A stretch of DNA of 64,000 bases. Origin: Minisyncoccota bacterium. Its GTDB lineage: Bacteria > Patescibacteriota > Minisyncoccia > Phycocordibacterales > UBA9973. The translations under genes were made by a program, and so were the position numbers. The notes beneath the pieces were generated by a model that did not search any database, was not told where the DNA came from, and was given only the letters and a program-made list of their open reading frames with translations. The stretch is from positions 267,184-331,183 of the forward strand of contig JBBABB010000001.1 of the NCBI GenBank assembly GCA_041657885.1, written 5' to 3'. Positions 9,235 to 56,065 of this stretch are shown one piece after another; the stretch's first letter is position 1, and the number at the start of each line of letters is the position of its first letter.

Positions 9235-10716
9235 TTATTTTACTTTCTTAACAATTTTCATGAATAAATCGTTGCGTTCATATTCGTTGTTAAACATTCC
9301 AAATGATGCAAAAGCAGGAGAGAAAAGAATTGTGTCACCTTTCTTTGCTAGTTTAATTGCTTTTTGAATTACGTCTTTCAAATCCTTCCCTATTTCATTC
9401 GTAATTGGTAATTTGTAATTCTTAATTAATTTTTCTGTTCCACTTCCTTCCAGAAAAATTACCGCTTTACAATATTTATTTATAACTTTTACAAAATCAC
9501 CAAGCGGAAGATTTTTGTCTGAACCCCCACAAATTAAAACAATTTTCTTTCCCCCTAGGCCTTGCCTAGGGGACACCAATGCTTCTATCCCCGCTATTGT
9601 CGCATCGGGGGTTGTAGCATTGTTATCATTGTAAATTTTTATTCCCTTATATATTTTTAGTAGTTGGAGACGTCCCTCTAATCCTTTAAATTTTTCTATA
9701 CTCTTTTTAATAGCTTCCATTGGCACGCCAAGCACTTGTGCGACGGCTACTGCACAAGCCATATTTTCTCGATGGTGGATTCCAGGGACATTGAATTTCC
9801 AACTTTCAACATCTTTTTTATCTATAACAATCAACTTTCCTTTTATTTCATTTTTATTTATTAACTTTTTCATTCCAGGACGGATAATAAGAATATCTCC
9901 CTTTTTTTGAAATTTAAAAATATTTGCCTTATCACTAAAATATCTCTCCATTGCTTTACTTGTAGTGAACTTAGTTGAACTATAATAATTCATATGGTCA
10001 GGCATAAATGTTGTAAAAACGGAAATATGAGGAGAAAGTTTCGCTTCGCCGAACCCTTGTAATTGCCAAGAATCTAATTCACAAACTAAAATATCACCAT
10101 CTTTTACTTTTTTAAGCAACGGTAATGTTGCAACACCACGAAGATTGCCACCTAAATATACATTTCTTTTTCCTCGTCCCGCCGTAGCCTTGGCGGAGGA
10201 GGATAAAATCTCATAAATCAAAGTTGTCGTCATCGATTTCCCTCTTGTCCCTGTTACTCCGATTATCATTACACCAGGTGCACATTTAGCAAAAAGAGAG
10301 ACGTCCATCTCAACGGGAATATTATTCTTTTTTGCCTCAGCAATATAGATGGAATCAAGAGGAACCCCTGCAGATTTTATAATCATATCTCTATCTTTAA
10401 AATTCTCAAGCCTATGTTCTCCTAAGACAAATTTTACTTTAGCTCCGTGATCGCGAAGCGATTTTACGGGGTTTTTTGAATTCTTATCCTTAATTCTTAA
10501 CCCGCCTGCTCCCGAACTATCGTGAGGGCGGGCAGGTTCGTAATTCTTAATTGCTTCTACTGAAGCTTTGAGTTGTTCTTTTGTCTTCAAGTCTGTGACT
10601 ATCAAATCTGCCCCGCATTCTGCCAAGAATTTGGTATATCCCAACCCACGTCCCAAAATCCCCAGTCCCATAACTGTAATTTTCTTCCCCTTAAAAAATT
10701 GTTTGTAATTTTTCAT
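9235..10716 (-). CDS. murD: UDP-N-acetylmuramoylalanine--D-glutamate ligase, carrying at least three in-frame GC-rich palindromic insertions
   Basis: The 493 aa protein has an N-terminal Rossmann fold (MGLGILGRGLG) and the Mur ligase P-loop GVTGTRGKSMTT. The segment ARPHDSSGAGGLRIKDKNSKNPVKSLRDHGAKV is atypical, and GC-rich repeats lie at 9551-9573, 10175-10202 and 10501-10535. Confidence 0.85.
   Translation of the reverse strand: MKNYKQFFKGKKITVMGLGILGRGLGYTKFLAECGADLIVTDLKTKEQLKASVEAIKNYEPARPHDSSGAGGLRIKDKNSKNPVKSLRDHGAKVKFVLGEHRLENFKDRDMIIKSAGVPLDSIYIAEAKKNNIPVEMDVSLFAKCAPGVMIIGVTGTRGKSMTTTLIYEILSSSAKATAGRGKRNVYLGGNLRGVATLPLLKKVKDGDILVCELDSWQLQGFGEAKLSPHISVFTTFMPDHMNYYSSTKFTTSKAMERYFSDKANIFKFQKKGDILIIRPGMKKLINKNEIKGKLIVIDKKDVESWKFNVPGIHHRENMACAVAVAQVLGVPMEAIKKSIEKFKGLEGRLQLLKIYKGIKIYNDNNATTPDATIAGIEALVSPRQGLGGKKIVLICGGSDKNLPLGDFVKVINKYCKAVIFLEGSGTEKLIKNYKLPITNEIGKDLKDVIQKAIKLAKKGDTILFSPAFASFGMFNNEYERNDLFMKIVKKVK
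9551..9573. repeat. Family B palindrome ccccctaggccttgcctagggga (in frame in murD; second copy 37527-37547 in miaA)
   Basis: It is the inverted repeat CCTAGGC/GCCTAGG flanked by C and G runs, and is identical apart from the central base in the two genes. Confidence 0.75.
10175..10202. repeat. Family C GC-rich repeat (CGCCGTAGCC-TTGG-CGGAGGCGG-like), in-frame copy in murD
   Basis: It reads cgtcccgccgtagccttggcggaggagg. Related copies are 20232-20259 (intergenic), 27369-27397 (leuS), and weaker variants at 37751-37776 and 14641-14665. Confidence 0.6.
10501..10535. repeat. Family A GC-rich palindrome (cccgcctgctcc-N-gggcgggcagg), in-frame copy in murD
   Basis: It reads cccgcctgctcccgaactatcgtgagggcgggcagg, a hairpin CCCGCC/GGCGGG. 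Other copies are at 40039-40069 (alr) and 42111-42140 (murB), and split arms lie at 19844-19854 and 19944-19953. Confidence 0.8.
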
Positions 10717-14576: not shown

Positions 14577-15770
14577 ATGAAAATTCTGGCGATTGAAACA
14601 TCGTGTGACGAAACAGGAATAAGTATATTGGAGGTGAAAAAACCTGCCTCGCGCCAAGGCGGGTCTGGTAAAAAAGATATTTTTAAAATTTTAGCCAATA
14701 ATATACATTCCCAAGTTGAAATTCACGCCCAATATGGCGGTGTTTTCCCTGCTCTGGCTAAAAGAGAACATATAAAGAATCTACCTATTCTTTTTGAAAA
14801 AACAATTAAACAAGCAAAAATAAAAATAGAACAAATTGATGCAATCGCTGTAACATATGGACCTGGTCTTGAACCAGCCCTTTGGACTGGAATAGTTTTT
14901 GCTAAGGAACTTTCAAAGAAATACAATATTCCAATCGTGAAAGTTAATCATATGGAGGGTCATATATTTTCTATATTTCCCAAAAAAAGAAAAACATTCA
15001 CAATTGATTCTGATAAAAAAATATTCCCAATGCTTTCACTTCTTGTTTCAGGTGGACACACTGAACTTATTTTAGTAAAAAATTGGCACAAATATAAAAA
15101 AATAGGGCAAACGCGAGATGATGCAGTTGGGGAAGCTTTTGATAAAGTAGCACGTATGCTTGGACTTCCCTATCCGGGAGGACCAGAGGTCTCAAAGCTG
15201 GCAGAAATAGAACGAGAAAAAATTCCCCTCTCGAGGGGTGGCTTGAAAAGTCGGGGTGGATGCATTCCACCTCCCCCTTCGGGTACTCCTCAAGAGGAGA
15301 ATCTGCAACTCCCACGTCCTATGATTTATTCAAAAGATTATGATTTCTCTTTTTCGGGATTAAAAACCGCAGTATTGTATCTAATAAGAGATTTAAAAAA
15401 AGAACATTCCGACATTCTTGAGAATGTCGGAATAAAACAAAAAATCGCAAAAGAATTTGAAGATGCGGTAGTTGAAACATTAGTATACAAAACAATAAAA
15501 GCAATTAAAGAATATAAAATAAAAACTCTTATTGTTGGTGGTGGGGTCTCGGCAAATAAATATTTACAGGAGATAATGAACAAAGAAGTAAAAAATCTAA
15601 ATTTTAGTAGTCGGACTACTAAAATTTTAACAAAAGTTCACTTCCCTTCTAAAAGTTTAACTGGAGATAATGCTCTTATGATTGCTATCGCTGGATATTT
15701 TCAATATAAAAATAAAAAAGGAGTAAAAAATTTAAATTCTATAAAAGCCAAAGGAAATTTATCTTTATGA
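14577..15770 (+). CDS. tsaD: tRNA N6-adenosine threonylcarbamoyltransferase TsaD (Kae1/Gcp family) with a roughly 30 aa in-frame GC-rich insertion
   Basis: MKILAIETSCDETGISIL... and the HMEGH metal site match TsaD. The segment IPLSRGGLKSRGGCIPPPPSGTPQEENLQLPRP, encoded by the GC-rich palindromic DNA at 15225-15318, is not part of canonical TsaD. Confidence 0.85.
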   Translation: MKILAIETSCDETGISILEVKKPASRQGGSGKKDIFKILANNIHSQVEIHAQYGGVFPALAKREHIKNLPILFEKTIKQAKIKIEQIDAIAVTYGPGLEPALWTGIVFAKELSKKYNIPIVKVNHMEGHIFSIFPKKRKTFTIDSDKKIFPMLSLLVSGGHTELILVKNWHKYKKIGQTRDDAVGEAFDKVARMLGLPYPGGPEVSKLAEIEREKIPLSRGGLKSRGGCIPPPPSGTPQEENLQLPRPMIYSKDYDFSFSGLKTAVLYLIRDLKKEHSDILENVGIKQKIAKEFEDAVVETLVYKTIKAIKEYKIKTLIVGGGVSANKYLQEIMNKEVKNLNFSSRTTKILTKVHFPSKSLTGDNALMIAIAGYFQYKNKKGVKNLNSIKAKGNLSL

Positions 15771-18825: not shown

Positions 18826-19323
18826 ATGATGAAAAAGAAATCATTTTTAGAACGCCTTACAGGTAGTATTCGATTTGAAGATAATGAGGAAAACGAGGAA
18901 GAAGAAGTGTCTTCTAATGGGTCAAAGAGAAAGATTAATTTTGAGTTAAAAGATAAAGACTTACCAAAAGAACCAAAATGGGAAGAAGAAATAGATGCGG
19001 AGTTAACAGTAGACCTATATCAAACCCCATCAGATATTATTGTACAGACAATGGTTGCTGGAGTACAACCAGATAACCTTTCTATAACTATTACTCGTGA
19101 TATGATTACAGTCCGTGGTAAACGTGAAGAAAATCAATCAATTGATAAAGATAATTACTTTGTCCAAGAACTTTACTGGGGATCATTCTCTAGAACCATT
19201 TCCCTACCAGAAGAAGTTGACCCCGAGGGAGCCGAAGCAATTGAAAAACATGGATTGTTAATTATTAAACTTCCGAAATTAGACAAAAATAGAGAGACGA
19301 AATTAAAAGTAAAATCAATTTAA
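18826..19323 (+). CDS. Hsp20/alpha-crystallin family small heat-shock protein
   Basis: A conserved alpha-crystallin domain (DLYQTPSDIIVQTMVAGVQPDNLSITI ... GSFSRTISLPEEVDPEGAEAIEKHGLLIIKLPK) is present. Confidence 0.8.
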   Translation: MMKKKSFLERLTGSIRFEDNEENEEEEVSSNGSKRKINFELKDKDLPKEPKWEEEIDAELTVDLYQTPSDIIVQTMVAGVQPDNLSITITRDMITVRGKREENQSIDKDNYFVQELYWGSFSRTISLPEEVDPEGAEAIEKHGLLIIKLPKLDKNRETKLKVKSI

Positions 19324-19325
19324 TT

Positions 19326-19356
19326 AAAAATCCTCCGACAATGTTGGAGGATTTTT
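19326..19356 (+). terminator. Rho-independent terminator after the hsp20 gene
   Basis: aaaaatcctccgacaatgttggaggattttt is an 8-bp GC-containing stem followed by a T-tract. Confidence 0.7.
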
Positions 19357-19365
19357 AATTTATTG

Positions 19366-19743: not shown

Positions 19744-19792
19744 TAATTATACTTTATCATATTTAAATGGAAAATAAAAGGTGCTAAAAAAG

Positions 19793-19973
19793 TGCCCTCG
19801 GCCAGAGTCGGACTGACATTAGACCCTTAGGACGGGCCGGTTCCCCGCCTGCCTAAGCCTGTGCCCCCGACACGAATCGAACGTACATCTATCCCTTAGG
19901 ACGGGACTGTTCTATCCATTGAACTACGGGGGCATAGGCACTGGCGGGCAGGTATCCGTTGAACTACGAGGGC
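19793..19973 (-). tRNA. Second tRNA-Arg(CCT)-like gene, interrupted in its D-loop by a 109-nt insertion that contains the complete tRNA-Arg above. The 5' piece is 19953-19973 and the 3' piece is 19793-19843.
   Basis: The 5' piece GCCCTCGTAGTTCAACGGATA joined to the 3' piece GAACCGGCCCGTCCTAAGGGTCTAATGTCAGTCCGACTCTGGCCGAGGGCA forms a full 72-nt cloverleaf (acceptor GCCCTCG/CGAGGGC). The insert is bounded by CCCCGCCTGCC...GGCGGGCAGG palindrome arms of repeat family A. Confidence 0.4.
19862..19933 (-). tRNA. tRNA-Arg (anticodon CCT), complete and embedded within a larger interrupted tRNA-like gene
   Basis: The minus-strand read GCCCCCGTAGTTCAATGGATAGAACAGTCCCGTCCTAAGGGATAGATGTACGTTCGATTCGTGTCGGGGGCA has a perfect 7-bp acceptor stem, a D-arm GTTC/GAAC, anticodon loop GTCCTAA and T-loop TTCGATT. 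Confidence 0.6.
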
Positions 19974-19980
19974 AATTTTG

Positions 19981-20220
19981 CTACTCTTTAATATCCAAAA
20001 GCTCCATAATTTTAGGCTTATTAAAACCAACGACTAATTTATCATCAATCGCAATAACGGGAACTCCCATTTGTCCACTTTTATCTATCATTTCTTTTCT
20101 TTTTTCTAAATTAGAAGAAACATCAAAATCTTCATAAACAATTCCTTTAGATGTAAAGAAATCTTTTGCCATGCGACAAAAATGACATGTTGGTGTACTG
20201 TAAACTGTTACTTTGCTCAT
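19981..20220 (-). CDS. Glutaredoxin-like protein (NrdH/Grx family thiol-disulfide oxidoreductase)
   Basis: The 79 aa protein has a CHFC active site after an N-terminal beta strand (VTVYSTPTCHFCRMAK) and a thioredoxin-fold C-terminal (GVPVIAIDDKLVVGF). Confidence 0.75.
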   Translation of the reverse strand: MSKVTVYSTPTCHFCRMAKDFFTSKGIVYEDFDVSSNLEKRKEMIDKSGQMGVPVIAIDDKLVVGFNKPKIMELLDIKE

Positions 20221-20392
20221 AATTTTTCTTTGGCTCGCCGTAGCGGAAGCGGAGGCGGCTATTATTAATTAATAAAGGATTTTCATTGTAACATAAAAAT
20301 AAAAATAAAAACAATTGTGCGAGTAGCGAGAATCGGACTCGCGTTTTTTGCTTGGGAAGCAAACATATTACCACTATATGATACTCGCATTT

Positions 20393-20918: not shown

Positions 20919-22808
20919 CTAATTGTTACTACCACGTATCATTTTTAAAAACACATCATGGGATATGTTTATTTTTGCGTTTGATTGCATTCTTTTCTTA
21001 CCCCTTTTTTGTTTCTCAAGCAACTTTTTCTTTCTACTCACATCCCCTCCACCCACAACTTTACTTCTGTGCATAAGAACATCCTTTCTGAAAGCAGACA
21101 CTGATTCTGATGATATAATTCGCCCTAATGCCTTCCCTTGAATTTTAAAAGCAAATTGCTGTCTTGGAATAATATCTTTTAATTTTTCAACTTGGGCTTT
21201 CGCTTCATCTGTCACTTTTCTTCGTGATACCACTCGACAAAATGCCACCATTGGTTCATCAGCGACAACGATATCAAGCCTAACAACATCAGCTTCTCTG
21301 TACTCACCTATTTCATACGAAATAGAAGAATACCCCGAAGTGATGCTTTTCATATCATCAAAAAAATTACGCATGAGTTCTCGTAATGGCATTTCTAAAT
21401 CAATCGAGGACCTGTTGTCTCCAAAATTATCAGTTCCTTTAACTATGGCTTCGTGGTCATAGAAGAATGGCATAAGAGAACTTATATAGGTTGATGGGGT
21501 GATAATTTTTACATTGACCCACGGCTCAAAAACTTTGACGATATTTCCATCATCAGGGAAAAGATGAGGTGAGTAAATAATTTCTTCTTTTCCATTACGA
21601 AGTAATACTTTGTAAGTAATAGAAGGCATTGTTACTATTAATTGTAAATTAAATTCACGACTCAACCTTTCTGTAATTATTTCTAAATGAAGCATCCCCA
21701 AAAAACCACAGCGATATCCTCTCCCAAGTGAACCTGAATTTTCTTCTTCATATGAAAAAGATGAATCTGATAGTCGTAGTCGCCCCAGTGCTTGTCTGAG
21801 ATTGGGAAAATCATCCTGACTTTCTGGGTACACAGAGGCCCAAACTACTGGTTTAGGATTTTTATACCCCGGTAAAGCAAGCATCGGCTTTTTAAGAAAA
21901 GTAATAGTATCTCCAACTGATGCAATTCCTGGTTTTTTAATACCTGTCACAATATAACCAATTTCTCCACTACTTAAAAATTCACGTGGTTGTTCTTCGG
22001 GAGAAAATGTCCCAACTTCAAGTGAAATAAATTTTTCGGCAGAAACTGCAAACAAAAGTGATTCTCCTTTTTTAAATCCTCCATTAACCACACGTACATA
22101 AACTATAACTCCTCTATGATTATCATATTTGAAATCAAAAACTAAAGCTCGCCCTGTGTTTGATGATAATGCTAAATTTTCTCCAATATGAGGACAAGGA
22201 ATCTTTTTTATTATTTCTTCAAGTAACATTGCCACACCCTCACCCGTTTTTCCCGAAACAAGTAAAATAGTGTCTGGGTCGATGTCTAAAAGTAGCGCCA
22301 CTTCCATTTTTATTTCTTCAACTCGAGCCAGTGATGAATCAATCTTGGAAAGTACTGGTATAATCACAAGCCCAGAATCACGCGCCATTTGTAAGGTAGT
22401 GAGTGTTTGAGCTTGCACGCCCTGAGTCGCGTCCACGAGCAAAATAGAGCCTTCTACGGCCTTAAGAGCGCGAGAAACTTCATAAGAGAAGTCAATATGC
22501 CCAGGCGTATCTATCAAATTCAAAATATAATTCTCACCCCCTCCATGCCTCCCCCAAGAGGAGAGGTTTTGAATTTCCCCTTCCCCTTTGGGGAGGGGTT
22601 GGGGTGAGGTGTACTCCATTCTAACGGGCTGCATTTTTATAGTAATACCACGTTCTCTTTCCAATTCCATTGAATCTAAAACTTGATCTTTCATTTTACG
22701 TTTTTCTATCGTGCCAGTTATTTCTATCATTCGGTCAGCCAAAGTACTCTTGCCATGGTCAATGTGGGCAATAATTGAAAAATTTCTGATATTCTTAATA
22801 TCTGTCAT
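20919..22808 (-). CDS. lepA: Elongation factor 4 (LepA) with an in-frame MITE-like insertion of about 26 aa in the GTPase domain
   Basis: FSIIAHIDHGKSTLADR, NLIDTPGH and the LepA C-terminal domain match EF4. The insertion SPQPLPKGEGEIQNLSSWGRHGGGEN is encoded by the GC-rich element at 22534-22612. Confidence 0.9.
   Translation of the reverse strand: MTDIKNIRNFSIIAHIDHGKSTLADRMIEITGTIEKRKMKDQVLDSMELERERGITIKMQPVRMEYTSPQPLPKGEGEIQNLSSWGRHGGGENYILNLIDTPGHIDFSYEVSRALKAVEGSILLVDATQGVQAQTLTTLQMARDSGLVIIPVLSKIDSSLARVEEIKMEVALLLDIDPDTILLVSGKTGEGVAMLLEEIIKKIPCPHIGENLALSSNTGRALVFDFKYDNHRGVIVYVRVVNGGFKKGESLLFAVSAEKFISLEVGTFSPEEQPREFLSSGEIGYIVTGIKKPGIASVGDTITFLKKPMLALPGYKNPKPVVWASVYPESQDDFPNLRQALGRLRLSDSSFSYEEENSGSLGRGYRCGFLGMLHLEIITERLSREFNLQLIVTMPSITYKVLLRNGKEEIIYSPHLFPDDGNIVKVFEPWVNVKIITPSTYISSLMPFFYDHEAIVKGTDNFGDNRSSIDLEMPLRELMRNFFDDMKSITSGYSSISYEIGEYREADVVRLDIVVADEPMVAFCRVVSRRKVTDEAKAQVEKLKDIIPRQQFAFKIQGKALGRIISSESVSAFRKDVLMHRSKVVGGGDVSRKKKLLEKQKRGKKRMQSNAKINISHDVFLKMIRGSNN
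22534..22612 (-). mobile_element. Solo MITE-like GC-rich element (family F) inserted in frame in lepA
   Basis: It reads ctcacccccctccatgcctcccccaagaggagaggttttgaatttccccttcccctttggggaggggttggggtgag, with terminal inverted repeats CTCACCCC/GGGGTGAG. It is related to the leuS copies. Confidence 0.55.
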
Positions 22809-27038: not shown

Positions 27039-29849
27039 CTAGACGACTATGTTGATAACTTTACCTGTAACATAAATAACTCTTTTAATCTCTTTATTCT
27101 CTGTCCAAGCGATTATACTCTTGTTTTTGAGGGCTATATTTTTAATTTCTTCTTCAGTTATATCCTTTGATATCATGATTTCAGCCCTAACTTTACCATT
27201 TACCTGTATTGCTATTTTTATTTCTTCTTCTATAATTTTCTTTTTGTCCCATTTTGGCCATTTACTTTTATTTATGGACTTTTTTTCTCCCAATAAATAC
27301 CATAACTCTTCTGTTATATGAGGGGCAAATGGCGAGAGAATTTGAAGAAACATTTTAAAATCTTTCTTCGTCACGCCGTAGCCTTTGGCGAAGGCGGATT
27401 CCATCTCATTTATCAATACCATCATAGATGAAACCGCTGTGTTGAAATTCATGGACTCTATATCTTCCGAAACTTTTTTGATTGTTTTATGAAGAAGCGT
27501 TTGAAACGAAGCAACCCCTCCTAAATCCTCCCCAGAAGGAAGGACTTTAAATTCCACTCCCTTCCCTTTGGGAAGGGTTGGGGATGGGTTGTAATGAATC
27601 CTCTCTCCTATTCGCCAAACTTTTTCAAGAAAACGACGCGACCCGATTATACTTTTTGTGTTCCAAACAACTGTCTGGTCGAATGGGCCCATAAACATTT
27701 CATAAAGTCGCAAAGTGTCTGCGCCATAAGTTTTCACGATATCGTCTGGATTAACAATATTGCCAAAGCGTTTAGACATTTTTCTCCCATCTTCACCGAT
27801 AATTAAACCAACTGATTGTAATTTCTTAAATGGTTCAAGAGTTGAAACAACTCCAATATCATAAAGGAATTTGTGCCAAAAACGAGCATAAATTAAATGC
27901 CTTGTGGCATGTTCAGCTCCGCCGACATAAAAATCAACTTGATTCCAATATTTTTCCTTTTTCTTATCAACTAGAGCTTTGTTGTTCTTTGGATCCATAT
28001 AACGCAAGTAATACCACGAACTCCCAGCCCATTGGGGCATTGTATTTGTTTCGCGTTTCATCATTTTTGCATTTTTACCTTTACCAACTTTAACATTTAC
28101 CCAATTAGAAATATTTGCCAGTGGTGATTCCCCTGTACCAGTTGGTTCATAAAATTTTACTCTTGGTAAAACAACTGGTAAATCTTTTTCCTTAATAGGA
28201 ACAATTTTGTCGCCATCGTGCAAAACAGGAATTGGTTCCCCCCAATAACGTTGTCTTGAAAATACCCAATCACGAAGTTTGTATTTTGTAACAATTTTTC
28301 CGCCAACTTCTTTGGTAATTTCATTAGCATCAACAAGCTGTCTATTAATAATTGGCAAGTTGTATTTTTCAGCAAATTCTTTATCACGACTGTCGTGTTG
28401 TGGTACTGCCATTATTGCTCCCGTGCCGTAACTAGCCAAAACATAATCCGCAATCCAGATTGGGATTTCTTCACCGTTTGCTGGATTTATCGCTTTTATT
28501 CCTTTTAATTCAACTCCTGTTTTTAGTTTATCTTCTCTAGTTCTTTCTATGTCTGTTTTGTTTTTAATTTGTTTTATATAATCTTCTACTTCTTTTTTAT
28601 TTGAAATATTATCAGAAAGTTTCTTCACTAATTCGTGTTCAGGTGCAAGTACAAGATAAGTAGCACCGAAAATAGTATCTGCCCGAGTAGTAAATACTTT
28701 AATACTTCCTAACTCAACCCCTCCTAAATCCTCCCCAAAGGGAAGGACTTTTAATGCTTTATTAATTTTATTTATAACAGAATCTATATTTTTTAAAACT
28801 TCTTCATTTTTAAATCTGATAACTTTAAAACCAAGTATTTTTAAAATTTCAGTTCTTTCTTCATCTTTTTCTTTTTGTAAGTCATGAATATCTCCATCAA
28901 CTTCTATTACTAAATTTTTTGAGAGACACACAAAATCAACAATGAATTTATTTATGATATGTTGTCTTCTAAAATGATATTCTTTATTCTTTTTTAAGAT
29001 TTGCCATAATTTTTTCTCAGCTTCTGTAGAGTTTTCACGCATCTCAAGAACCTTACCTTGAAGCAATTTCCATGTTTGTGAATCTGTCGTATAGTACCCC
29101 GGCATTTCTCCCTTCCCTTTGGGAAGGGCTGGGGATGGGTTCTTAATTTTAAATTCTATTTCACTTCCTTCTGACTTTCCTATCCAGTTTTTTTGACTTT
29201 CTTTAATTGATTCAGGCCAATTCAGTGAATCTAAATCTTTAAGTAATCTTTCAGCATAATCTGTAATGCGAAGCACCCATTGACGCATAGGTTTTTGTTC
29301 AACAAAAAAACCACAACGTTCACATTTACCATCTTCTACATCTTCATTAGCTAAACCAGTTTTGCAAGAAGGACACCAATTAATTGGTTCATACGATTCA
29401 TAAGCTAAACCTTTTTCTAAAAGTTTCAAAAATATCCATTGGGTCCATTTATAAAATTTCGGGTCAGTTGTATTTACTTCTCTAGACCAATCATAATCAA
29501 ATCCGAGTATTTCTAATTGTTTCTTAAAACGAATAACATTTTTAGGTACCGAAACAGCAGGATTAGTTTTAGTTTTTATGGCATAATTTTCAGCCGGAAG
29601 ACCAAAAGCATCAAAACCCATGGGATGCATAACGTTTGCTCCTTGCATTCTCTTCATTCTAGATATGACGTCAGTGGCAATATAACCCTTAGGATGACCA
29701 ACATGAAGACCTTCACCAGAAAGATATGGGAACATATCAAGCACATAATATTTAGGCTTTTTAGAAAAATCTAAAGTTTTATAAATTTTCTTCTTTTCCC
29801 AATCTTTTTGCCATTTTGATTCTATTTTTTTATGGTCGTATGTTTTCAT
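27039..29849 (-). CDS. leuS: Leucyl-tRNA synthetase carrying two in-frame MITE-like insertions, one with an embedded DUF559 (Vsr-like PD-(D/E)xK) endonuclease domain
   Basis: It is a class I aaRS with HVGHPKGY (HIGH), KMSKRFGN (KMSKS) and the LeuS editing domain, 936 aa in total. Between EIEFKIK and SIKVFTTRADT there is an insert of about 145 aa containing ...LWQILKKNKEYHFRRQHIINKFIVDFVCLSKNLVIEVDGDIHDLQKEKDEERTEILKILGFKVIRFKNEEV..., which matches DUF559. Confidence 0.9.
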   Translation of the reverse strand: MKTYDHKKIESKWQKDWEKKKIYKTLDFSKKPKYYVLDMFPYLSGEGLHVGHPKGYIATDVISRMKRMQGANVMHPMGFDAFGLPAENYAIKTKTNPAVSVPKNVIRFKKQLEILGFDYDWSREVNTTDPKFYKWTQWIFLKLLEKGLAYESYEPINWCPSCKTGLANEDVEDGKCERCGFFVEQKPMRQWVLRITDYAERLLKDLDSLNWPESIKESQKNWIGKSEGSEIEFKIKNPSPALPKGKGEMPGYYTTDSQTWKLLQGKVLEMRENSTEAEKKLWQILKKNKEYHFRRQHIINKFIVDFVCLSKNLVIEVDGDIHDLQKEKDEERTEILKILGFKVIRFKNEEVLKNIDSVINKINKALKVLPFGEDLGGVELGSIKVFTTRADTIFGATYLVLAPEHELVKKLSDNISNKKEVEDYIKQIKNKTDIERTREDKLKTGVELKGIKAINPANGEEIPIWIADYVLASYGTGAIMAVPQHDSRDKEFAEKYNLPIINRQLVDANEITKEVGGKIVTKYKLRDWVFSRQRYWGEPIPVLHDGDKIVPIKEKDLPVVLPRVKFYEPTGTGESPLANISNWVNVKVGKGKNAKMMKRETNTMPQWAGSSWYYLRYMDPKNNKALVDKKKEKYWNQVDFYVGGAEHATRHLIYARFWHKFLYDIGVVSTLEPFKKLQSVGLIIGEDGRKMSKRFGNIVNPDDIVKTYGADTLRLYEMFMGPFDQTVVWNTKSIIGSRRFLEKVWRIGERIHYNPSPTLPKGKGVEFKVLPSGEDLGGVASFQTLLHKTIKKVSEDIESMNFNTAVSSMMVLINEMESAFAKGYGVTKKDFKMFLQILSPFAPHITEELWYLLGEKKSINKSKWPKWDKKKIIEEEIKIAIQVNGKVRAEIMISKDITEEEIKNIALKNKSIIAWTENKEIKRVIYVTGKVINIVV
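27513..27591 (-). mobile_element. Solo family F MITE-like element (both terminal repeats adjacent, no cargo) inserted in frame in leuS
   Basis: It reads caacccctcctaaatcctccccagaaggaaggactttaaattccactcccttccctttgggaagggttggggatgggttg. In the leuS frame this gives NPSPTLPKGKGVEFKVLPSGEDLGGVA. Confidence 0.6.
28715..29141 (-). mobile_element. Family F element with cargo: about 427 bp, with terminal inverted repeats, encoding in frame with leuS a DUF559 endonuclease-like domain
   Basis: The ends caacccctcctaaatcctccccaaagggaaggactttt (28715-28752) and ctcccttccctttgggaagggctggggatgggtt (29108-29141) are inverted repeats. Translated in the leuS frame they give LPFGEDLGGVEL and NPSPALPKGKGE. Confidence 0.6.
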
Positions 29850-37005: not shown

Positions 37006-37935
37006 ATGAATAAAATCATTGTTATACTCGGCCAAACCTCTACTGGAAAGAGTGATTTTGCAGTAGAAGTAGCAAAAAATATAAATGGCGAAATAATTTC
37101 AGCAGATTCAAGACAAGTTTATAAAGGTATGAATTTAGGAACTGGTAAAATTACAAAAAAAGAAATGTGGGGTATACCGCATTATTTACTTGATATCACT
37201 TCCCCCTCACGAGTTTTTTCCGTTAGTGATTTCCAAAAATTGGCAAACAAAAAAATAAAAGAAATTTTAGAAAAAGGTAAAACTCCCATAATTTGTGGTG
37301 GTACAGGATTTTATATTGATTCCATCATAAATAGAACAATTTTCCCTGAAGTTCCACCAAATAAAAAACTCCGAGAAATTCTCGAGAGAAAAACCACAGA
37401 AAAACTTTTGGAAATATTAAAAAAAATAGATAAAAATCGCGCCCAAAATATTGACCAAAAAAATAGAATTCGCCTGATTCGTGCAATTGAAATAGTAAAA
37501 ACTCTCGGCAAGGTCCCAAGTCTTTCCCCTAGGCCGTGCCTAGGGGAAGATAAATATTTAAAAATTGGACTCACTATGCCACCTGAAGTTTTGAAAGAAA
37601 GAATCAAGACTCGTTTACTCATACGCATTAAAAAAGGTATGATAAAAGAAGTTGAAAATTTACACAATCAAGGCGTGTCTTGGAAACGAATGAATGCTCT
37701 TGGGCTTGAATATCGATACGTTAGTAATTATTTAAAAGATAGCAAAACCATGCCTCCGCTAAAGCTTCGGCAGGCGAAGAAAGAAATGATTGAAAAATTA
37801 AATACCGAGATTTGGCATTACGCTAAACGTCAAAAGACATGGTTTAAAAGAGATTTTAACACAATTTGGATAGACCCAAGAAAAAAGAGTGAGAAAAATA
37901 AAGCTCTAAAAGAGATAAAGAGATTTTTAAAATAG
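37006..37935 (+). CDS. miaA: tRNA dimethylallyltransferase MiaA (contains two in-frame GC-rich palindromes)
   Basis: The P-loop ILGQTSTGKSDFAVEVAK and the IPT-family motif SADSRQVYKGMNLGTGKI match MiaA. In-frame repeats lie at 37527-37547 (SPRPCLGE) and about 37751-37776. Confidence 0.8.
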   Translation: MNKIIVILGQTSTGKSDFAVEVAKNINGEIISADSRQVYKGMNLGTGKITKKEMWGIPHYLLDITSPSRVFSVSDFQKLANKKIKEILEKGKTPIICGGTGFYIDSIINRTIFPEVPPNKKLREILERKTTEKLLEILKKIDKNRAQNIDQKNRIRLIRAIEIVKTLGKVPSLSPRPCLGEDKYLKIGLTMPPEVLKERIKTRLLIRIKKGMIKEVENLHNQGVSWKRMNALGLEYRYVSNYLKDSKTMPPLKLRQAKKEMIEKLNTEIWHYAKRQKTWFKRDFNTIWIDPRKKSEKNKALKEIKRFLK

Positions 37936-39935: not shown

Positions 39936-41099
39936 TTATTTAATAACTCTTGGCAAAAGAGCACTTATCCTTGTTGTTGCTTCATAATTTATCGTTCCTG
40001 ACTCCTTAGCAATTTGTTCAGCAGTAATTTCATTTTTACCCCGCCTGCTCCCTCGTGAGGGCGGGCAGGCCTGTTTTCCTAAAATTACGACTTCATCCTC
40101 TGGCAACACATCTTTAATATGAGAAATATCAACTACAATCATATTCATAGCAACTCTCCCCAAAATTTTTGCTCTCTTACCTTTTACTAAAACTTCCCCA
40201 GTATTTGAAAGCAGACGTGGAATACCATCAGCATAACCCTGTGGAATTACTGCTATCTTGGTCGTTTTCTTTGTTATATATGTAAGCCCATAACCGATTG
40301 GATGATTCGCGGGGAGAACTTTAATCTGAGCTACGTGTGTCACCCATTTCAAAACTGGTTTCAAAATTATTTTCTTTTTATTTAAATATTCTAAATGTTC
40401 ACTTGGCCACATTCCATAAAGCCCGATACCAAGTCGAACAATATTGTGTAAGCTATTTCCTTTTTCATAAACTAGAATTCCAGAAGTTGCTGAAATGTGG
40501 GTTTTAATATTTTCAAAACTATTTTTTCTAAAAATTTCTACACATTTATGATACATATCTATTTGTTTCTGTGCGTAGGTGAAATTCATGGTGTCTTCAA
40601 TATTTGCAAAATGAGAATAAATTCCATCGAGTTCTATATTCTTCAACTTTTTGAGTTCAACAATAAAATTATCAATCTGGCTTGGCATTATTCCTTCTCT
40701 ACCAAGACAAGAATCAATAGCAACATGTACTTTGACTTTCATTTTTAAACTCCCAGCAATAAAATTTATTTTCAATAAATGAATCAAATCAAAAGCAGAT
40801 ATTATCGCTTTTGATTTTATGGCTCTTTTTATACCATCTCCATTCAAATAACCAAATACCAAAACGGGTTTATTTGTAACCTTTCCAACTCTTTCAAATT
40901 CTTCAATACTATTTACTTGGAAATAATCTGTATAAGGAGCAATAATTTTCGTCACCTCAACATCCCCATGCCCGTAAGCATTTGCTTTTATAACAGAAGC
41001 AATCTTTGTACCGTTTTTCAGTAATCCTCGAAACTGCTTGATATTATGTATCAAGTTTTCTTTTGAAATCTCTATATATGAAAGTGGTAAATTTTGCAT
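39936..41099 (-). CDS. alr: Alanine racemase with an in-frame family A palindrome insertion. Its start is revised to the internal Met because the longer ORF overlaps tRNA-Leu.
   Basis: ASVIKANAYGHGDVEV contains the PLP-lysine motif and the fold is Alr-like. QACPPSRGSRRGKNEI is encoded by ccccgcctgctccctcgtgagggcgggcagg at 40039-40069. The track ORF 39936-41177 would overlap the tRNA at 41102-41183. Confidence 0.75.
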   Translation of the reverse strand: MQNLPLSYIEISKENLIHNIKQFRGLLKNGTKIASVIKANAYGHGDVEVTKIIAPYTDYFQVNSIEEFERVGKVTNKPVLVFGYLNGDGIKRAIKSKAIISAFDLIHLLKINFIAGSLKMKVKVHVAIDSCLGREGIMPSQIDNFIVELKKLKNIELDGIYSHFANIEDTMNFTYAQKQIDMYHKCVEIFRKNSFENIKTHISATSGILVYEKGNSLHNIVRLGIGLYGMWPSEHLEYLNKKKIILKPVLKWVTHVAQIKVLPANHPIGYGLTYITKKTTKIAVIPQGYADGIPRLLSNTGEVLVKGKRAKILGRVAMNMIVVDISHIKDVLPEDEVVILGKQACPPSRGSRRGKNEITAEQIAKESGTINYEATTRISALLPRVIK

Positions 41100-41220: not shown

Positions 41221-42384
41221 TTATATTATCTCCGGTTCTTGCTCTAGTGTTATCCCAAATTTTTGCTCAACTATTTTTATTATTTCATTTCTAGCATTTA
41301 TAAGATCTTCTTTTGTAGCATTTCCGTTGTTTACCAAGACAAGGGCATTCTTGTCATAGACAGAAACATTACCAAATGACTTCCCTTTTAATCCTGCATT
41401 TTCAATGAGCCAACCAGCGGGAATTTTTACTAGGTCTTGCCTAGTCGTTTCCAGTGGAAAAAATTTAGCATTTGGGAAATCTGCTTTAATTTTATCGGCT
41501 ACACTATTTGAAACAATAGGATTCTTGAAAAATGAACCGACATTTGGAATTTCTTTTGGGTTTGGTAATTTTTCTTTACGAATTTCAATAATTGCTTCGC
41601 GAATTTGTTTTAAATTAGGATTCTCTATTTTGTGTTCTTCGAAATATTTTGAGACGCCAGGATATCCTAATGCTGGAGAAAGGTTTTTTTCTCCTCCTTG
41701 TTGAGGAGGAGTGCCCTTTGGGGCGAGGTGGTGACTAATTAATTCTAAATCACCACCCCCTACCCCCTCCTCCAAAAGGAGGGGAGGAACTTTATTAAGT
41801 CTATATGTTACAGCGGTTATTATGTATTTCCCTTTATCTTCATTTTTGAAAATACTATCACGGTACCCAAATTTACAATCTTTATTTGAAATAGTTTTAA
41901 TTTTATTTTCTTTGATATCAAAAACCTCCACTTCCAAAATGGTATCTTTAACTTCTACTCCATAAGCCCCGACATTTTGGACTGGCGTTGCTCCAACTGT
42001 TCCAGGAATTGCCGAAAGTGCCTCTAATCCTTGCAGATTCATTTCAACAGTTTTCTCTACAATTTTGTCCCAAATCTCGCCAGCTCCAACTTTTATATCT
42101 GCATATTTTTCCGTTTCGTTCCCGCCTGCTCCCTTGTGAGGGCGGGCAGGTATTATTTCAAAACCTTTAATTTCTATTTTTATAGCAAACACATCAATAA
42201 TTCCATCCGAAAATACAATATTTGAACCCCCGCCTAATATAAAAATTGGGGTATTTTTTTCTCTTGCCATTAAATAAACATTTCCTAGCTCATCTTTTTT
42301 ATCAATTTTTACAAAATAGCGAAATTGCCCTCCTATATGTAGTGATGAATAATCCCGGATATCTACGTATTCTTGTATTTTCAT
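41221..42384 (-). CDS. murB: UDP-N-acetylenolpyruvoylglucosamine reductase MurB with two in-frame GC-rich palindromic insertions
   Basis: It has an FAD-binding domain (ILGGGSNIVF) and a MurB C-terminal domain. Inserts occur at ARPHKGAGGNETEK (family A, 42111-42140) and VPPLLLEEGVGGGDLELISHHLAPKGTPPQQGGEK (41690-41790). Confidence 0.8.
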   Translation of the reverse strand: MKIQEYVDIRDYSSLHIGGQFRYFVKIDKKDELGNVYLMAREKNTPIFILGGGSNIVFSDGIIDVFAIKIEIKGFEIIPARPHKGAGGNETEKYADIKVGAGEIWDKIVEKTVEMNLQGLEALSAIPGTVGATPVQNVGAYGVEVKDTILEVEVFDIKENKIKTISNKDCKFGYRDSIFKNEDKGKYIITAVTYRLNKVPPLLLEEGVGGGDLELISHHLAPKGTPPQQGGEKNLSPALGYPGVSKYFEEHKIENPNLKQIREAIIEIRKEKLPNPKEIPNVGSFFKNPIVSNSVADKIKADFPNAKFFPLETTRQDLVKIPAGWLIENAGLKGKSFGNVSVYDKNALVLVNNGNATKEDLINARNEIIKIVEQKFGITLEQEPEII

Positions 42385-54751: not shown

Positions 54752-56065
54752 ATGGAGAAGGAAGAAAAGAAAGAACCATTATCACAAGAAGGAGACCTGC
54801 CCGAAATGCACAAGCAGGCGGGAAATTATATTAAAAAGCTTGGCCCAGGAATTATTACTGGAGCAGCCGATGATGACCCCGCTGGAATTGCTACCTATTC
54901 TCAAGCTGGTGCTCAATATGGAACAGGTCTAACTTGGCTTGCTGCTTGGACATATCCCTTTGTAGCTACCGTTCAAGAAATGTGCGCTCGTATTGCTCTC
55001 GTCACCGGACGAGGTTTGGCCGCTAACATAAAACATACCTATTCAAGAGAAATACTTTACGTTTGTACAATTCTTTTATTTTTTGCTAACACATTAAATA
55101 TTGGTGCTGATTTAGGGGCCATGGCAAAAGCAGTCCAGCTACTAGCTCCCGGGGCTTCATTTATTTTTTTAGTTGTGTTTATTGGTATCGTTGGATTATT
55201 TTTAGAAATATTAATTCCCTATAGAAGATATACAAAATATCTCAAATGGTTAGTTATCGCCGTTTTTGCATATATTGCCACTGGATTAATTATCAATATG
55301 GATTGGTCTGTGTTGCTACGAGATGGACTTATTCCACAAATTACATTTTCTAAAACTCAAATTCTTCTCATCACCGGAATATTGGGAACTACCATTTCTC
55401 CATATTTATTTTTCTGGCAAACTTCACAAGAAATAGAAGAGGAAATTTCCGAAGGCAAGACGACTGTTCGCTCACGCAAAGGAACTACCCACGCCGAAAT
55501 TAAAGAAATGCGAGTTGATATTTGGGCTGGAATGTTTTTGTCTAATCTCGTCATGTTCTTTATTATTGCTGTCTGCGCTAATACTCTTTTTGTCAATGGA
55601 ATTACAAACATAAGTACCGCCGCCGATGCTGCTCGTGCACTTCGTCCTCTTGCTGGACAATGGGCATCGTTACTTTTTGCCGTAGGAATTATTGGAACTG
55701 GATTGTTGGCTATTCCAGTACTGGCGGGTTCCGCTGCTTACGCAATTTCTGAAAGTTTTGGATGGAGAGAAGGATTATACCGAAAATTTAAAACAGCTCA
55801 TGCATTTTATGGAGTCATCGCTGTTTCAATTATCATCGGTATTTTAATTAATTTTATTGGCATTGACCCGATTAAAGCGCTCATTTATTCGGCCATTGTA
55901 AACGGAGTTGTTGCTCCAGTAATTCTGATATTCATAGTTAAAATAAGTAGTAGTAAAAAAATAATGGGTGAATTTAAAAATTCCCTGATAATAAAAATAT
56001 TAGGATGGACAGCAACCATATTTATGGGCATTGCCGCAGTTGCTACAATTATTTCCTTGTTCTAA
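54752..56065 (+). CDS. mntH: NRAMP-family divalent metal (Mn2+/Fe2+) transporter
   Basis: The 437 aa protein has about 11 TM helices and an NRAMP signature near the N-terminus (GPGIITGAADDDPAGIATYSQAGAQYG). Confidence 0.7.
   Translation: MEKEEKKEPLSQEGDLPEMHKQAGNYIKKLGPGIITGAADDDPAGIATYSQAGAQYGTGLTWLAAWTYPFVATVQEMCARIALVTGRGLAANIKHTYSREILYVCTILLFFANTLNIGADLGAMAKAVQLLAPGASFIFLVVFIGIVGLFLEILIPYRRYTKYLKWLVIAVFAYIATGLIINMDWSVLLRDGLIPQITFSKTQILLITGILGTTISPYLFFWQTSQEIEEEISEGKTTVRSRKGTTHAEIKEMRVDIWAGMFLSNLVMFFIIAVCANTLFVNGITNISTAADAARALRPLAGQWASLLFAVGIIGTGLLAIPVLAGSAAYAISESFGWREGLYRKFKTAHAFYGVIAVSIIIGILINFIGIDPIKALIYSAIVNGVVAPVILIFIVKISSSKKIMGEFKNSLIIKILGWTATIFMGIAAVATIISLF

Follow-up and report, generated by a model that had tools for sequence, protein, structure and literature searches.

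A small palindromic element carrying a complete tRNA gene has probably disrupted the essential resident tRNA-Arg(CCT) gene of a Minisyncoccota bacterium and now supplies the replacement. The locus lies in a 64,000-nucleotide stretch of this genome (GenBank assembly GCA_041657885.1, contig JBBABB010000001.1, positions 267,184–331,183; hereafter the window), and all of its parts read on the minus strand. An outer tRNA-Arg(CCT) gene begins with a 21-nt 5′ piece at 19953–19973 (GCCCTCGTAGTTCAACGGATA; positions 1–21, comprising the 5′ strands of the acceptor and D-stems and the D-loop), ends with a 51-nt 3′ piece at 19793–19843 (GAACCGGCCCGTCCTAAGGGTCTAATGTCAGTCCGACTCTGGCCGAGGGCA; positions 22–73), and is split exactly between A21 and G22 by a 109-nt insert (19844–19952). 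This insert, which we call the cassette, is predicted to form an imperfect inverted-repeat stem capped by a complete tRNA-Arg(CCT). It consists of a 10-nt 5′ arm (19943–19952, CCTGCCCGCC), which recurs in identical form at more than 120 loci of other genomes, a 9-nt leader (19934–19942, AGTGCCTAT), a canonical 72-nt inner tRNA-Arg(CCT) that is presumably the functional gene (19862–19933), an 8-nt trailer partly paired with the leader (19854–19861, CAGGCTTA) and a 10-nt 3′ arm (19844–19853, GGCAGGCGGG) that abuts outer G22 with zero unpaired bases. The cassette is best described as a non-autonomous palindromic element whose passenger gene makes up for disruption of the target.

Both genes were recognizable as tRNAs. 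The inner gene scored 58.3 bits against Rfam model RF00005 (gathering score 29; model positions 1–71), was also called tRNA-Arg(cct) by ARAGORN and has a canonical T-loop (TTCGATT), bearing out an initial annotation, made from the letters alone, that had placed a complete 72-nt tRNA here. The same annotation had proposed that the flanks assemble into a second cloverleaf with the same anticodon loop once 109 nt are removed, and this held as well: joined, the flanks gave a 72-nt sequence that ARAGORN called tRNA-Arg(cct) and whose minimum free energy fold was a perfect cloverleaf (−29.3 kcal/mol, z = −2.6), with the anticodon loop GTCCTAA common to inner and outer genes. The two halves complement each other: together they restore exactly 72 nt of one gene, in which the acceptor pair T5:A68 is compensated; because excision leaves an exact tRNA, the insertion produced no target-site duplication. 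Folding of the whole 196-nt region (−86.3 kcal/mol, z = −4.9; 0 of 200 shuffles were equally good) formed the outer acceptor, anticodon and T arms and, stacked beneath the inner acceptor stem, a leader/trailer stem of 6 + 3 + 4 bp in which the leader’s GCCU pairs with the trailer’s AGGC. In tRNA, U55 of the T-loop pairs with G18. All stems of the outer gene are intact, and its T-loop, TCCGACT (U55C, U59C), departs from the universal T54–T55–C56, as the initial annotation had remarked, whereas the relatives described below all have TTCGATT or TTCAATT. ARAGORN accepted the joined outer gene as a tRNA; its intron mode, which covers anticodon-loop introns only, reported the inner gene alone, the outer gene being interrupted in the D-loop. 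An Rfam scan of the region at gathering score and at E ≤ 10 returned only the inner tRNA, with no intron, ribozyme or partial tRNA match to the outer pieces.

Comparison with relatives, chosen for a glutaredoxin 82–90% identical to that of the window from among hundreds of close glutaredoxin homologues, located the empty site. Gene order was kept (lepA, divIC, tRNA-Gly, grx, tRNA-Arg, a small open reading frame (ORF), tRNA-Phe, hsp20, prsW and valS), and in L001/2, L003, L004, L005/6 and L008/9 a single, unbroken tRNA-Arg(CCT) separates grx from the small ORF, the last pair compared only as far as its contigs extend. These uninterrupted genes reached 57.5–62.7 bits where scored. The outer 5′ piece of the window matched the resident 5′ part at 20 of 21 positions in L004, L008, L009 and L011, the acceptor strand GCCCTCG is common to the outer gene and L004, L008, L009, L010 and L011, and the L003 tRNA-Arg starts 7 nt past the grx stop, precisely as the outer 5′ piece does in the window, where grx is a 79-amino-acid glutaredoxin-family gene (19981–20220). 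Positional orthology and the empty sites in relatives thus identify the outer gene as the disrupted resident. Identity between the outer gene and the relatives’ genes was 81–85%, and about nine of its changes fall at positions that are invariant among the relatives (C16, C26, G28, T42, C43, two in the variable loop, C55 and C59). By contrast with its 81% identity to its own outer gene, the inner gene is 97% identical to the L003 resident. As judged from sequence, the outer gene is the positional orthologue of the relatives’ single uninterrupted gene, in which decay has begun.

Insertions have struck this tRNA-Arg locus repeatedly. Other inserts, each with a full tRNA-Arg behind it, break the D-loop of L010 and L011 at this same point (after position 19 or 21). 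In L200, a species-representative genome of Paceibacterota in which synteny is shared, an insert 91% identical to that of the window and bearing the same leader AGTGCCTAT occupies a different outer allele (GTCTCTG...CAGAGACA); a third tRNA-Arg in turn encloses this outer gene by way of other inverted repeats, the outermost arms being CCCAGTAG...CTACTGGG. Among the window, L003, L004, L005 and L010, the acceptor stems of tRNA-Arg(CCT) differ at up to four fully compensated pairs (alleles GCCCCCG, GCCCTCG, GTCTCTG, GCTTCTG and GCTCTTG), and the D and anticodon arms are nearly identical. Such unusually fast acceptor-stem divergence among close relatives fits allele replacement.

The arms belong to a palindrome family that also occurs without cargo. 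Three short palindromes and the insert ends account for all copies of CCCGCCTGC and GCGGGCAGG (plus strand) in the window, exactly four of each, and GGCAGGCGGGG at no more than one mismatch gave 2 matches against 0.09 expected; in all, the 10-nt imperfect inverted arms occur 4–5 times in the window and at more than 120 other loci. That the arms delimit the insert was part of the initial annotation, and it stands with coordinates shifted by one, to 19843/19844–19853 and 19943–19952 from 19844–19854 and 19944–19953. Also upheld was its identification of the arms with palindromes inserted in frame in murD (10501–10536, 36 nt), alr (40040–40069, 30 nt) and murB (42121–42150, 30 nt), all on the minus strand in genes named by NCBIfam; the lengths of these cargo-less family A copies place them in frame, and they fall into two codon phases. 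In an NRAMP transporter gene lies a variant without cargo, CCTGCCCG...GCAGGCGGG, in mRNA-sense orientation (54796–54822, plus strand, 27 nt). Over all sequence fetched, 8 of 9 cargo-less copies were a multiple of 3 nt long, indicating that the copies in ORFs are translated, not removed from RNA.

The nested architecture proved to be widespread. A metagenome scan for contigs with the tRNA-Arg 5′ part in which GGATA is not followed by G yielded at least 120 matches, and the majority of those listed were ordinary tRNAs with a different D-arm. About 25 of the listed matches were tRNA-Arg genes interrupted at GGATA|, with a full tRNA-Arg just downstream wherever the sequence sufficed; 13 of these were nested, mostly with arms CCTGCCCGCC ... 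GGCAGGCGGG. The outer and inner anticodons of the metagenome nests matched (CCT/CCT, or TCT/TCT in L034 and L066), and the outer genes spanned canonical (L034, L080), decayed (L039; L066, which also has C55) and truncated (L089, L012, L117, L118) states. One locus, L092 (from 2097, plus strand), is nested three deep; its middle gene has a cargo-less palindrome at 21/22 and, in its D-stem, the innermost cassette, the arms of which are flipped. In L069 and L094, a second hairpin occupies the outer anticodon loop. Other inverted-repeat families show the same nested arrangement (L103, L026, L074, L118 and the outermost L200 layer). A separate group of tRNA-Arg genes from metagenomes is broken in the anticodon loop by longer sequence (L024/L130, L054, L083 and L102; L023, L120 and L090); some of these interruptions may be group I introns, and in L023 and L120 the break is followed by a hairpin and a second tRNA-Arg(CCT).

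A scan of species-representative genomes for both arms around any T-loop motif gave at least 120 matches and extended the finding beyond tRNA-Arg, with arm-enclosed tRNAs in at least 115 species-level genomes besides that of the window, the majority Patescibacteria and some Bacteroidota. Among the matches listed, 117 of 122 arm pairs enclosed a complete tRNA, together representing 25 anticodon types and 11 amino acids (Thr, Arg, Pro, Val, Ala, Ile, Leu, Cys, Gln, Met and Lys); the five arm pairs without a tRNA, in GC-rich genomes, look like chance occurrences. Record titles of the first 80 matches named Saccharibacteria, Paceibacterota and Uhr-, Kerfeld-, Morani-, Doudna-, Ames-, Berkel- and Falkowbacteria, and six of the 80 were Bacteroidota or Ignavibacteria by title. 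Another 19 of the first 80 came from co-assembly bins titled ‘uncultured Gammaproteobacteria’ or ‘Pseudomonadales’ (L142, L143, L145, L151, L155, L159 and 13 more), an assignment taken from record titles only; the local sequence of these 19 looks AT-rich and like that of the candidate phyla radiation (CPR). In the cultured species Flagellimonas beolgyonensis KCTC 23501 (L192, NZ_RZMY01000018.1, 7484–7700), a tRNA-Val(GAC) lies between the same arms in the D-loop of an outer tRNA-Val, the T-loop of which additionally holds a CCTGCCGGCAGGCAGG hairpin without cargo and the anticodon arm of which is aberrant. The architecture was also present in L167, L198, L245, L187, L149 and L205 (Bacteroidota or Ignavibacteria). 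A scan of viral contigs for the arm–tRNA–arm arrangement gave 0 matches.

Several regularities ran through the genome set. Deleting the insert rebuilt the outer tRNA in 67 of the 117 listed cases, nearly always without trimming, so that simple excision again argues against target duplication. In 59 of these 67, the rebuilt anticodon equalled the inner one, and the other 8 mismatches were boundary artefacts, second inserts or decay (for example, L207). The remaining 50 outer genes could not be rebuilt; 37 of them keep significant cognate remnants in a flank, and in some others remnants were seen by eye. No arm-flanked tRNA among the listed matches lay outside a tRNA gene. Cassettes had entered the D-, anticodon- or T-loop, or its border, at points largely fixed for each tRNA type; a search for a conserved target motif found varying flanks (TA|GA, GA|GC, TGA|TAA, CTG|CAA and TTC|GAA) with only an A|G preference. 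The leader and trailer share the pattern ANNGCCYNN / NRGGCNNT across tRNA types, with T:A / A:T covariation next to the GCC/GGC helix, and their subfamilies track amino-acid type. The orientation of the arms relative to the cargo can flip, having done so in 2 of 6 cases in a sample not selected for orientation.

Defects were concentrated in the outer genes. Across 59 outer/inner pairs, in which decay was measured as unpaired stem positions and invariant violations, outer genes had 1.80 unpaired stem positions compared with 0.47 in inner genes (Wilcoxon p = 4e-5), and invariants were violated in 19 outer versus 4 inner genes. The outer/inner comparison of T-loops in the genome set is biased by the search pattern, which required a T-loop motif; in the metagenome set, in which the inner gene was not preselected, 12 of 12 inner T-loops were canonical. 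Together, the cognate rebuilt outer genes, the remnants, the fixed sites, the leader/trailer conservation and the enrichment of defects, with the empty sites and truncated outer genes, indicate that the outer gene is a decaying disrupted resident and that the inner gene works. At the level of sequence, outer copies across the family are thereby shown to behave as pseudogenes. For the window’s own outer gene, we infer non-function from U55C, the private substitutions and the behaviour of the family. The initial annotation had offered two readings of this locus, and the empty sites and family-wide outer decay favour the first, in which a palindromic element carrying a tRNA disrupted and replaced the resident.

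Two further observations concern the outer genes. Outer genes from several genomes and for different tRNA types share a U55-to-C change (TCCGA..; the window, L066, L158, L168 and L243); it could be a mutational hotspot or reflect selection against an outer T-arm that competes with the inner one. In outer tRNA-Thr genes (L141, L204, L206, L226, L232 and L211), the anticodon region is interrupted or replaced by a second insert that recurs, TCCGCC(AAAG/TACG)GCGGATAAACTCC; these inserts form a further family of small, conserved hairpins found in dead tRNA genes.

These data lead us to propose how such a cassette might work and spread. Transcription would start upstream and enter the locus by the outer 5′ piece. 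The inner tRNA would then be freed by RNase P and 3′ processing, and the outer pieces would be discarded; CCA would be added after processing, because none is encoded in the inner gene. At the DNA level, the cassette would be a non-autonomous selfish element, tolerated in an essential single-copy gene because it brings a replacement. Its spread would be homing-like, targeting one site within genes of the matching tRNA type through a putative enzyme or recombination route, as suggested by the use of one site per tRNA type, the type-specific leader/trailer lineages and the near-identical L200 insert in a different allele. Over time, the outer halves would mutate and be deleted, and a new cassette may strike the new functional gene, resulting in serial allele replacement and nested ‘dolls’.

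Several findings weigh against this proposal. The outer gene of the window lacks any stem mismatch. No mobilising enzyme, target motif or transposition intermediate was found, within a screen of window ORFs for transposases and nucleases that was not exhaustive. Inner genes of different genomes are 0.76 identical to one another versus 0.72 for outer genes, and the arms are nearly invariant despite divergent cargos, which would also fit a host-level function of the arms. In L229, the inner gene equals the outer one over 71 of 71 nt, an identity that local copying explains better than import. A tight, recently spread clade of cargos was considered and rejected, cargos being about as divergent between genomes as outer genes are (0.76 versus 0.72).

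The strongest competing explanation, which we nevertheless regard as doubtful, is a self-templated origin, in which a cargo-less palindrome lands in a tRNA loop and the same gene, or its mature RNA, is copied into the hairpin tip by repair, template switching or reverse transcription. This explanation keeps a dead outer and a functional inner gene and makes the inner gene a local copy instead of imported cargo. It would accommodate L229, in which no older arms lie outside the identical pair, as well as the constant match of cargo to target, the close coincidence of cargo boundaries with tRNA ends in all types and the presence elsewhere of cargo-less hairpins at the very same D-loop site (L043, L104 and L107). 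Inner genes are also slightly closer to their own outer genes (0.78) than to those of other genomes (0.72), the extra similarity being mainly in the anticodon stem. However, median inner–outer identity is only 0.76 (range 0.62–0.97), and the differences are largely compensatory, as expected if the two evolved separately as functional tRNAs. The near-match of the window’s inner gene to the resident of another lineage, the presence of a 91%-identical insert in a different outer allele (L200) and the L069 cargo, a different tRNA-Arg type with an encoded CCA, are likewise hard to obtain by copying in place, and we know of no mechanism that places a tRNA copy in a hairpin tip. A related idea, which we offer tentatively as a possibility, is that a novel mechanism dedicated to replacing tRNA genes, conserved in Patescibacteria and Bacteroidota, reads the arms and places a tRNA copy, templated by the target or by mature RNA, at the hairpin tip in the loop of the same gene, creating a self-matching ‘disrupt and rescue’ drive directed at essential RNA genes. 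Such a drive would explain the cargo–target match in 25 anticodon types, the coincidence of cargo ends with tRNA ends and the better conservation of arms than of tRNAs.

The second reading in the initial annotation, an intron-like split tRNA, fared worse and is unlikely, though it may hold for individual intact outer genes; we assign it a low probability overall. Here the outer gene would be functional, cleavage at the base of the arm helix and ligation would release the 109-nt insert to give two tRNA-Arg(CCT) molecules per transcript, and the arms would be the excision recognition element. In its favour, all 21 stem pairs are retained in the window’s outer gene, which without the insert folds as a cloverleaf, several outer genes are fully canonical (L034, L080 and L148), conservation is far higher in the arms, which are present across phyla, than in the tRNAs, and some outer genes hold two or three hairpins, as multi-intron archaeal tRNAs do. 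Archaeal introns are marked by a bulge–helix–bulge, in which a 4-bp helix separates two 3-nt bulges that contain the splice sites. In the fold inspected by hand, both junctions instead lie at the base of one helix, with the 3′ arm against G22, and the 4-bp GCCU/AGGC helix is flanked by 3 × 3 and 2 × 2 internal loops, not by opposed bulges. Other findings point the same way: Rfam gave no group I or II intron signal at E ≤ 10, the 50 of 117 listed outer genes that could not be rebuilt are joined by others that are truncated or lack an anticodon arm, defects are enriched in outer genes with U55C recurrent, cargo-less ORF copies occupy two codon phases, have lengths divisible by 3 and so are not removed from mRNA, and arm orientation relative to cargo can flip.

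Self-splicing group I introns of 184–894 nt occur in the anticodon loops of bacterial tRNAs, including those of Patescibacteria, and a survey of tRNA interruptions in Patescibacteria reported only group I/II introns and mentioned neither palindromic inserts nor nested tRNAs (Nakagawa et al. 2026, PMC13011429). Archaea have bulge–helix–bulge introns at non-canonical positions as well as split and permuted tRNAs (PMC4090602, PMC3978253). The cassette loci resemble these in having an interrupted gene whose halves rebuild a cloverleaf, in loop insertion that includes the D-loop and, at some loci, in several insertions per gene; Patescibacteria were moreover already noted for unusual interruptions of their tRNAs. 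Unlike group I introns, the insert is 109 nt long, sits in the D-loop rather than the anticodon loop and gave no Intron_gpI match at gathering score or at E ≤ 10; unlike tRNA introns generally, it lacks a bulge–helix–bulge and holds a tRNA with the same anticodon, and the interrupted copies decay.

Least credible, and in our view barely tenable, is that the arrangement is a by-product of tRNA-targeting integrative elements or tandem duplication, with the pieces as att-type partial repeats or duplicate remnants and the arms incidental: partial tRNA copies beside full ones are common at integration sites, L010 has a 5′ fragment followed by a full gene and a synteny break, and some loci have tandem dead and intact copies (L043, L100), but the window locus has no integrase or island and intact synteny on both sides, its two pieces are complementary halves of an exact 72-nt gene with compensated T5:A68, the same 10-nt arms bound the insert at more than 120 loci and in 25 anticodon types, and att duplications give direct repeats of one end, not 5′ and 3′ halves around a full gene. 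Integrative elements such as phages and islands that enter tRNA genes bring a copy of the displaced tRNA segment, and the gene stays functional. The cassette shares their logic, in that selfish DNA lands in an essential tRNA gene and supplies the missing tRNA sequence. Integrative elements, however, span kilobases, encode an integrase, create a direct repeat of just one part of the tRNA, the 3′ (rarely the 5′), and rebuild a hybrid gene, whereas the cassette is 109 bp long, has no protein gene, brings a whole tRNA and leaves both old halves, departing from the integrase-type pattern.

Set against these alternatives, a palindromic element with a compensating passenger has its nearest counterparts among small non-autonomous elements: Rickettsia palindromic elements (RPE), REP/REPIN sequences, miniature inverted-repeat transposable elements (MITEs) and ‘mobile insertion cassettes’ with passenger genes. 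The likeness to RPE and REP is one of architecture, not of sequence comparison. As with RPE, REP and MITEs, the palindromes here are short, GC-rich, imperfect and present in many copies in an AT-rich reduced genome, they lie in frame in ORFs and they have no coding capacity of their own; as in mobile insertion cassettes, terminal inverted repeats can bear a passenger gene. They differ in that the passenger is a complete tRNA at the palindrome tip, the target is always the loop of a cognate tRNA and the arms are conserved across phyla. A MITE or mobile insertion cassette of the DDE type would share the terminal inverted repeats and multiple copies but not the lack of a target-site duplication, whereas hairpin elements of the IS200/IS605 or REP/RAYT type would share the hairpin-forming ends and the lack of target duplication but not the lack of a conserved flanking tetra- or pentanucleotide. 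Synthetic ‘cleave and rescue’ gene drives inactivate an essential gene while bearing a working copy, so that carriers stay viable. This parallel is conceptual; a drive is hypothetical here, and no nuclease attacking uninterrupted alleles was found in the window, whose ORFs were not exhaustively screened. A search of full-text literature, with the arm sequences included, returned no description of nested tRNAs or of these palindromes, subscription-only papers being outside its coverage, and this widespread architecture is apparently undescribed.

The neighbours of the locus are valS, prsW, hsp20, tRNA-Phe, the small ORF, grx, tRNA-Gly, divIC, lepA and murJ, with no recombinase, integrase or island among them. 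Directly 3′ of the outer gene, sequence inspection revealed a CTTTTTT run (19786–19792, minus strand) that may be the transcript end; a simple promoter/terminator scan called no terminator there. Between the outer 3′ end and the conserved downstream CCTTTTATTTT lies an extra CTTTTTTAGCA (19782–19792, minus strand), the AGCA of which corresponds to the 3′ end of the L001-type tRNA-Arg (..AAGAGCA|CCTTTTATTTT); this extra sequence may be the last remnant of an older, replaced gene, or chance. A strong 18-bp hairpin between hsp20 and tRNA-Phe (19322–19360) was called terminator-like on the plus strand. The window has 33% G+C and many other GC-rich palindrome families inside genes, with palindromes at 22531–22623 (in lepA), 27554–27594, 29108–29146, 41696–41794 and 15162–15304 and further ones at 9547–9621, 37506–37556, 10166–10211, 27366–27408 and 20226–20268. 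Recurring families include CTTCCCTTTGGGAAGGG...GGGGATGGG, CCCCTAGGCC..GCCTAGGGG and CGCCGTAGCC..GGCGGAGG. The lepA product (20919–22808, minus strand) is 629 amino acids long compared with 607–621 in relatives and contains an extra segment, SPQPLPKGEGEIQNLSSWGRHGGGEN.

Gene finders report the inner gene only, and the outer halves and extra hairpins are missed or possibly miscalled as fragments, a consequence for annotation. We have not found described a mobile-element strategy in which a non-coding element tolerates landing in an essential gene by bringing the whole replacement. The arms, conserved across phyla, must be recognised by something, and Flagellimonas beolgyonensis KCTC 23501, a cultured organism with the same arms and architecture, is a possible experimental system. 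If our interpretation is correct, the reduced genomes of the CPR would turn over essential single-copy tRNA genes by means of a tiny palindrome-armed cassette, in a process repeatable at one locus. Such turnover would provide a concrete route for horizontal replacement of tRNA genes and could explain the acceptor-stem differences between close relatives.

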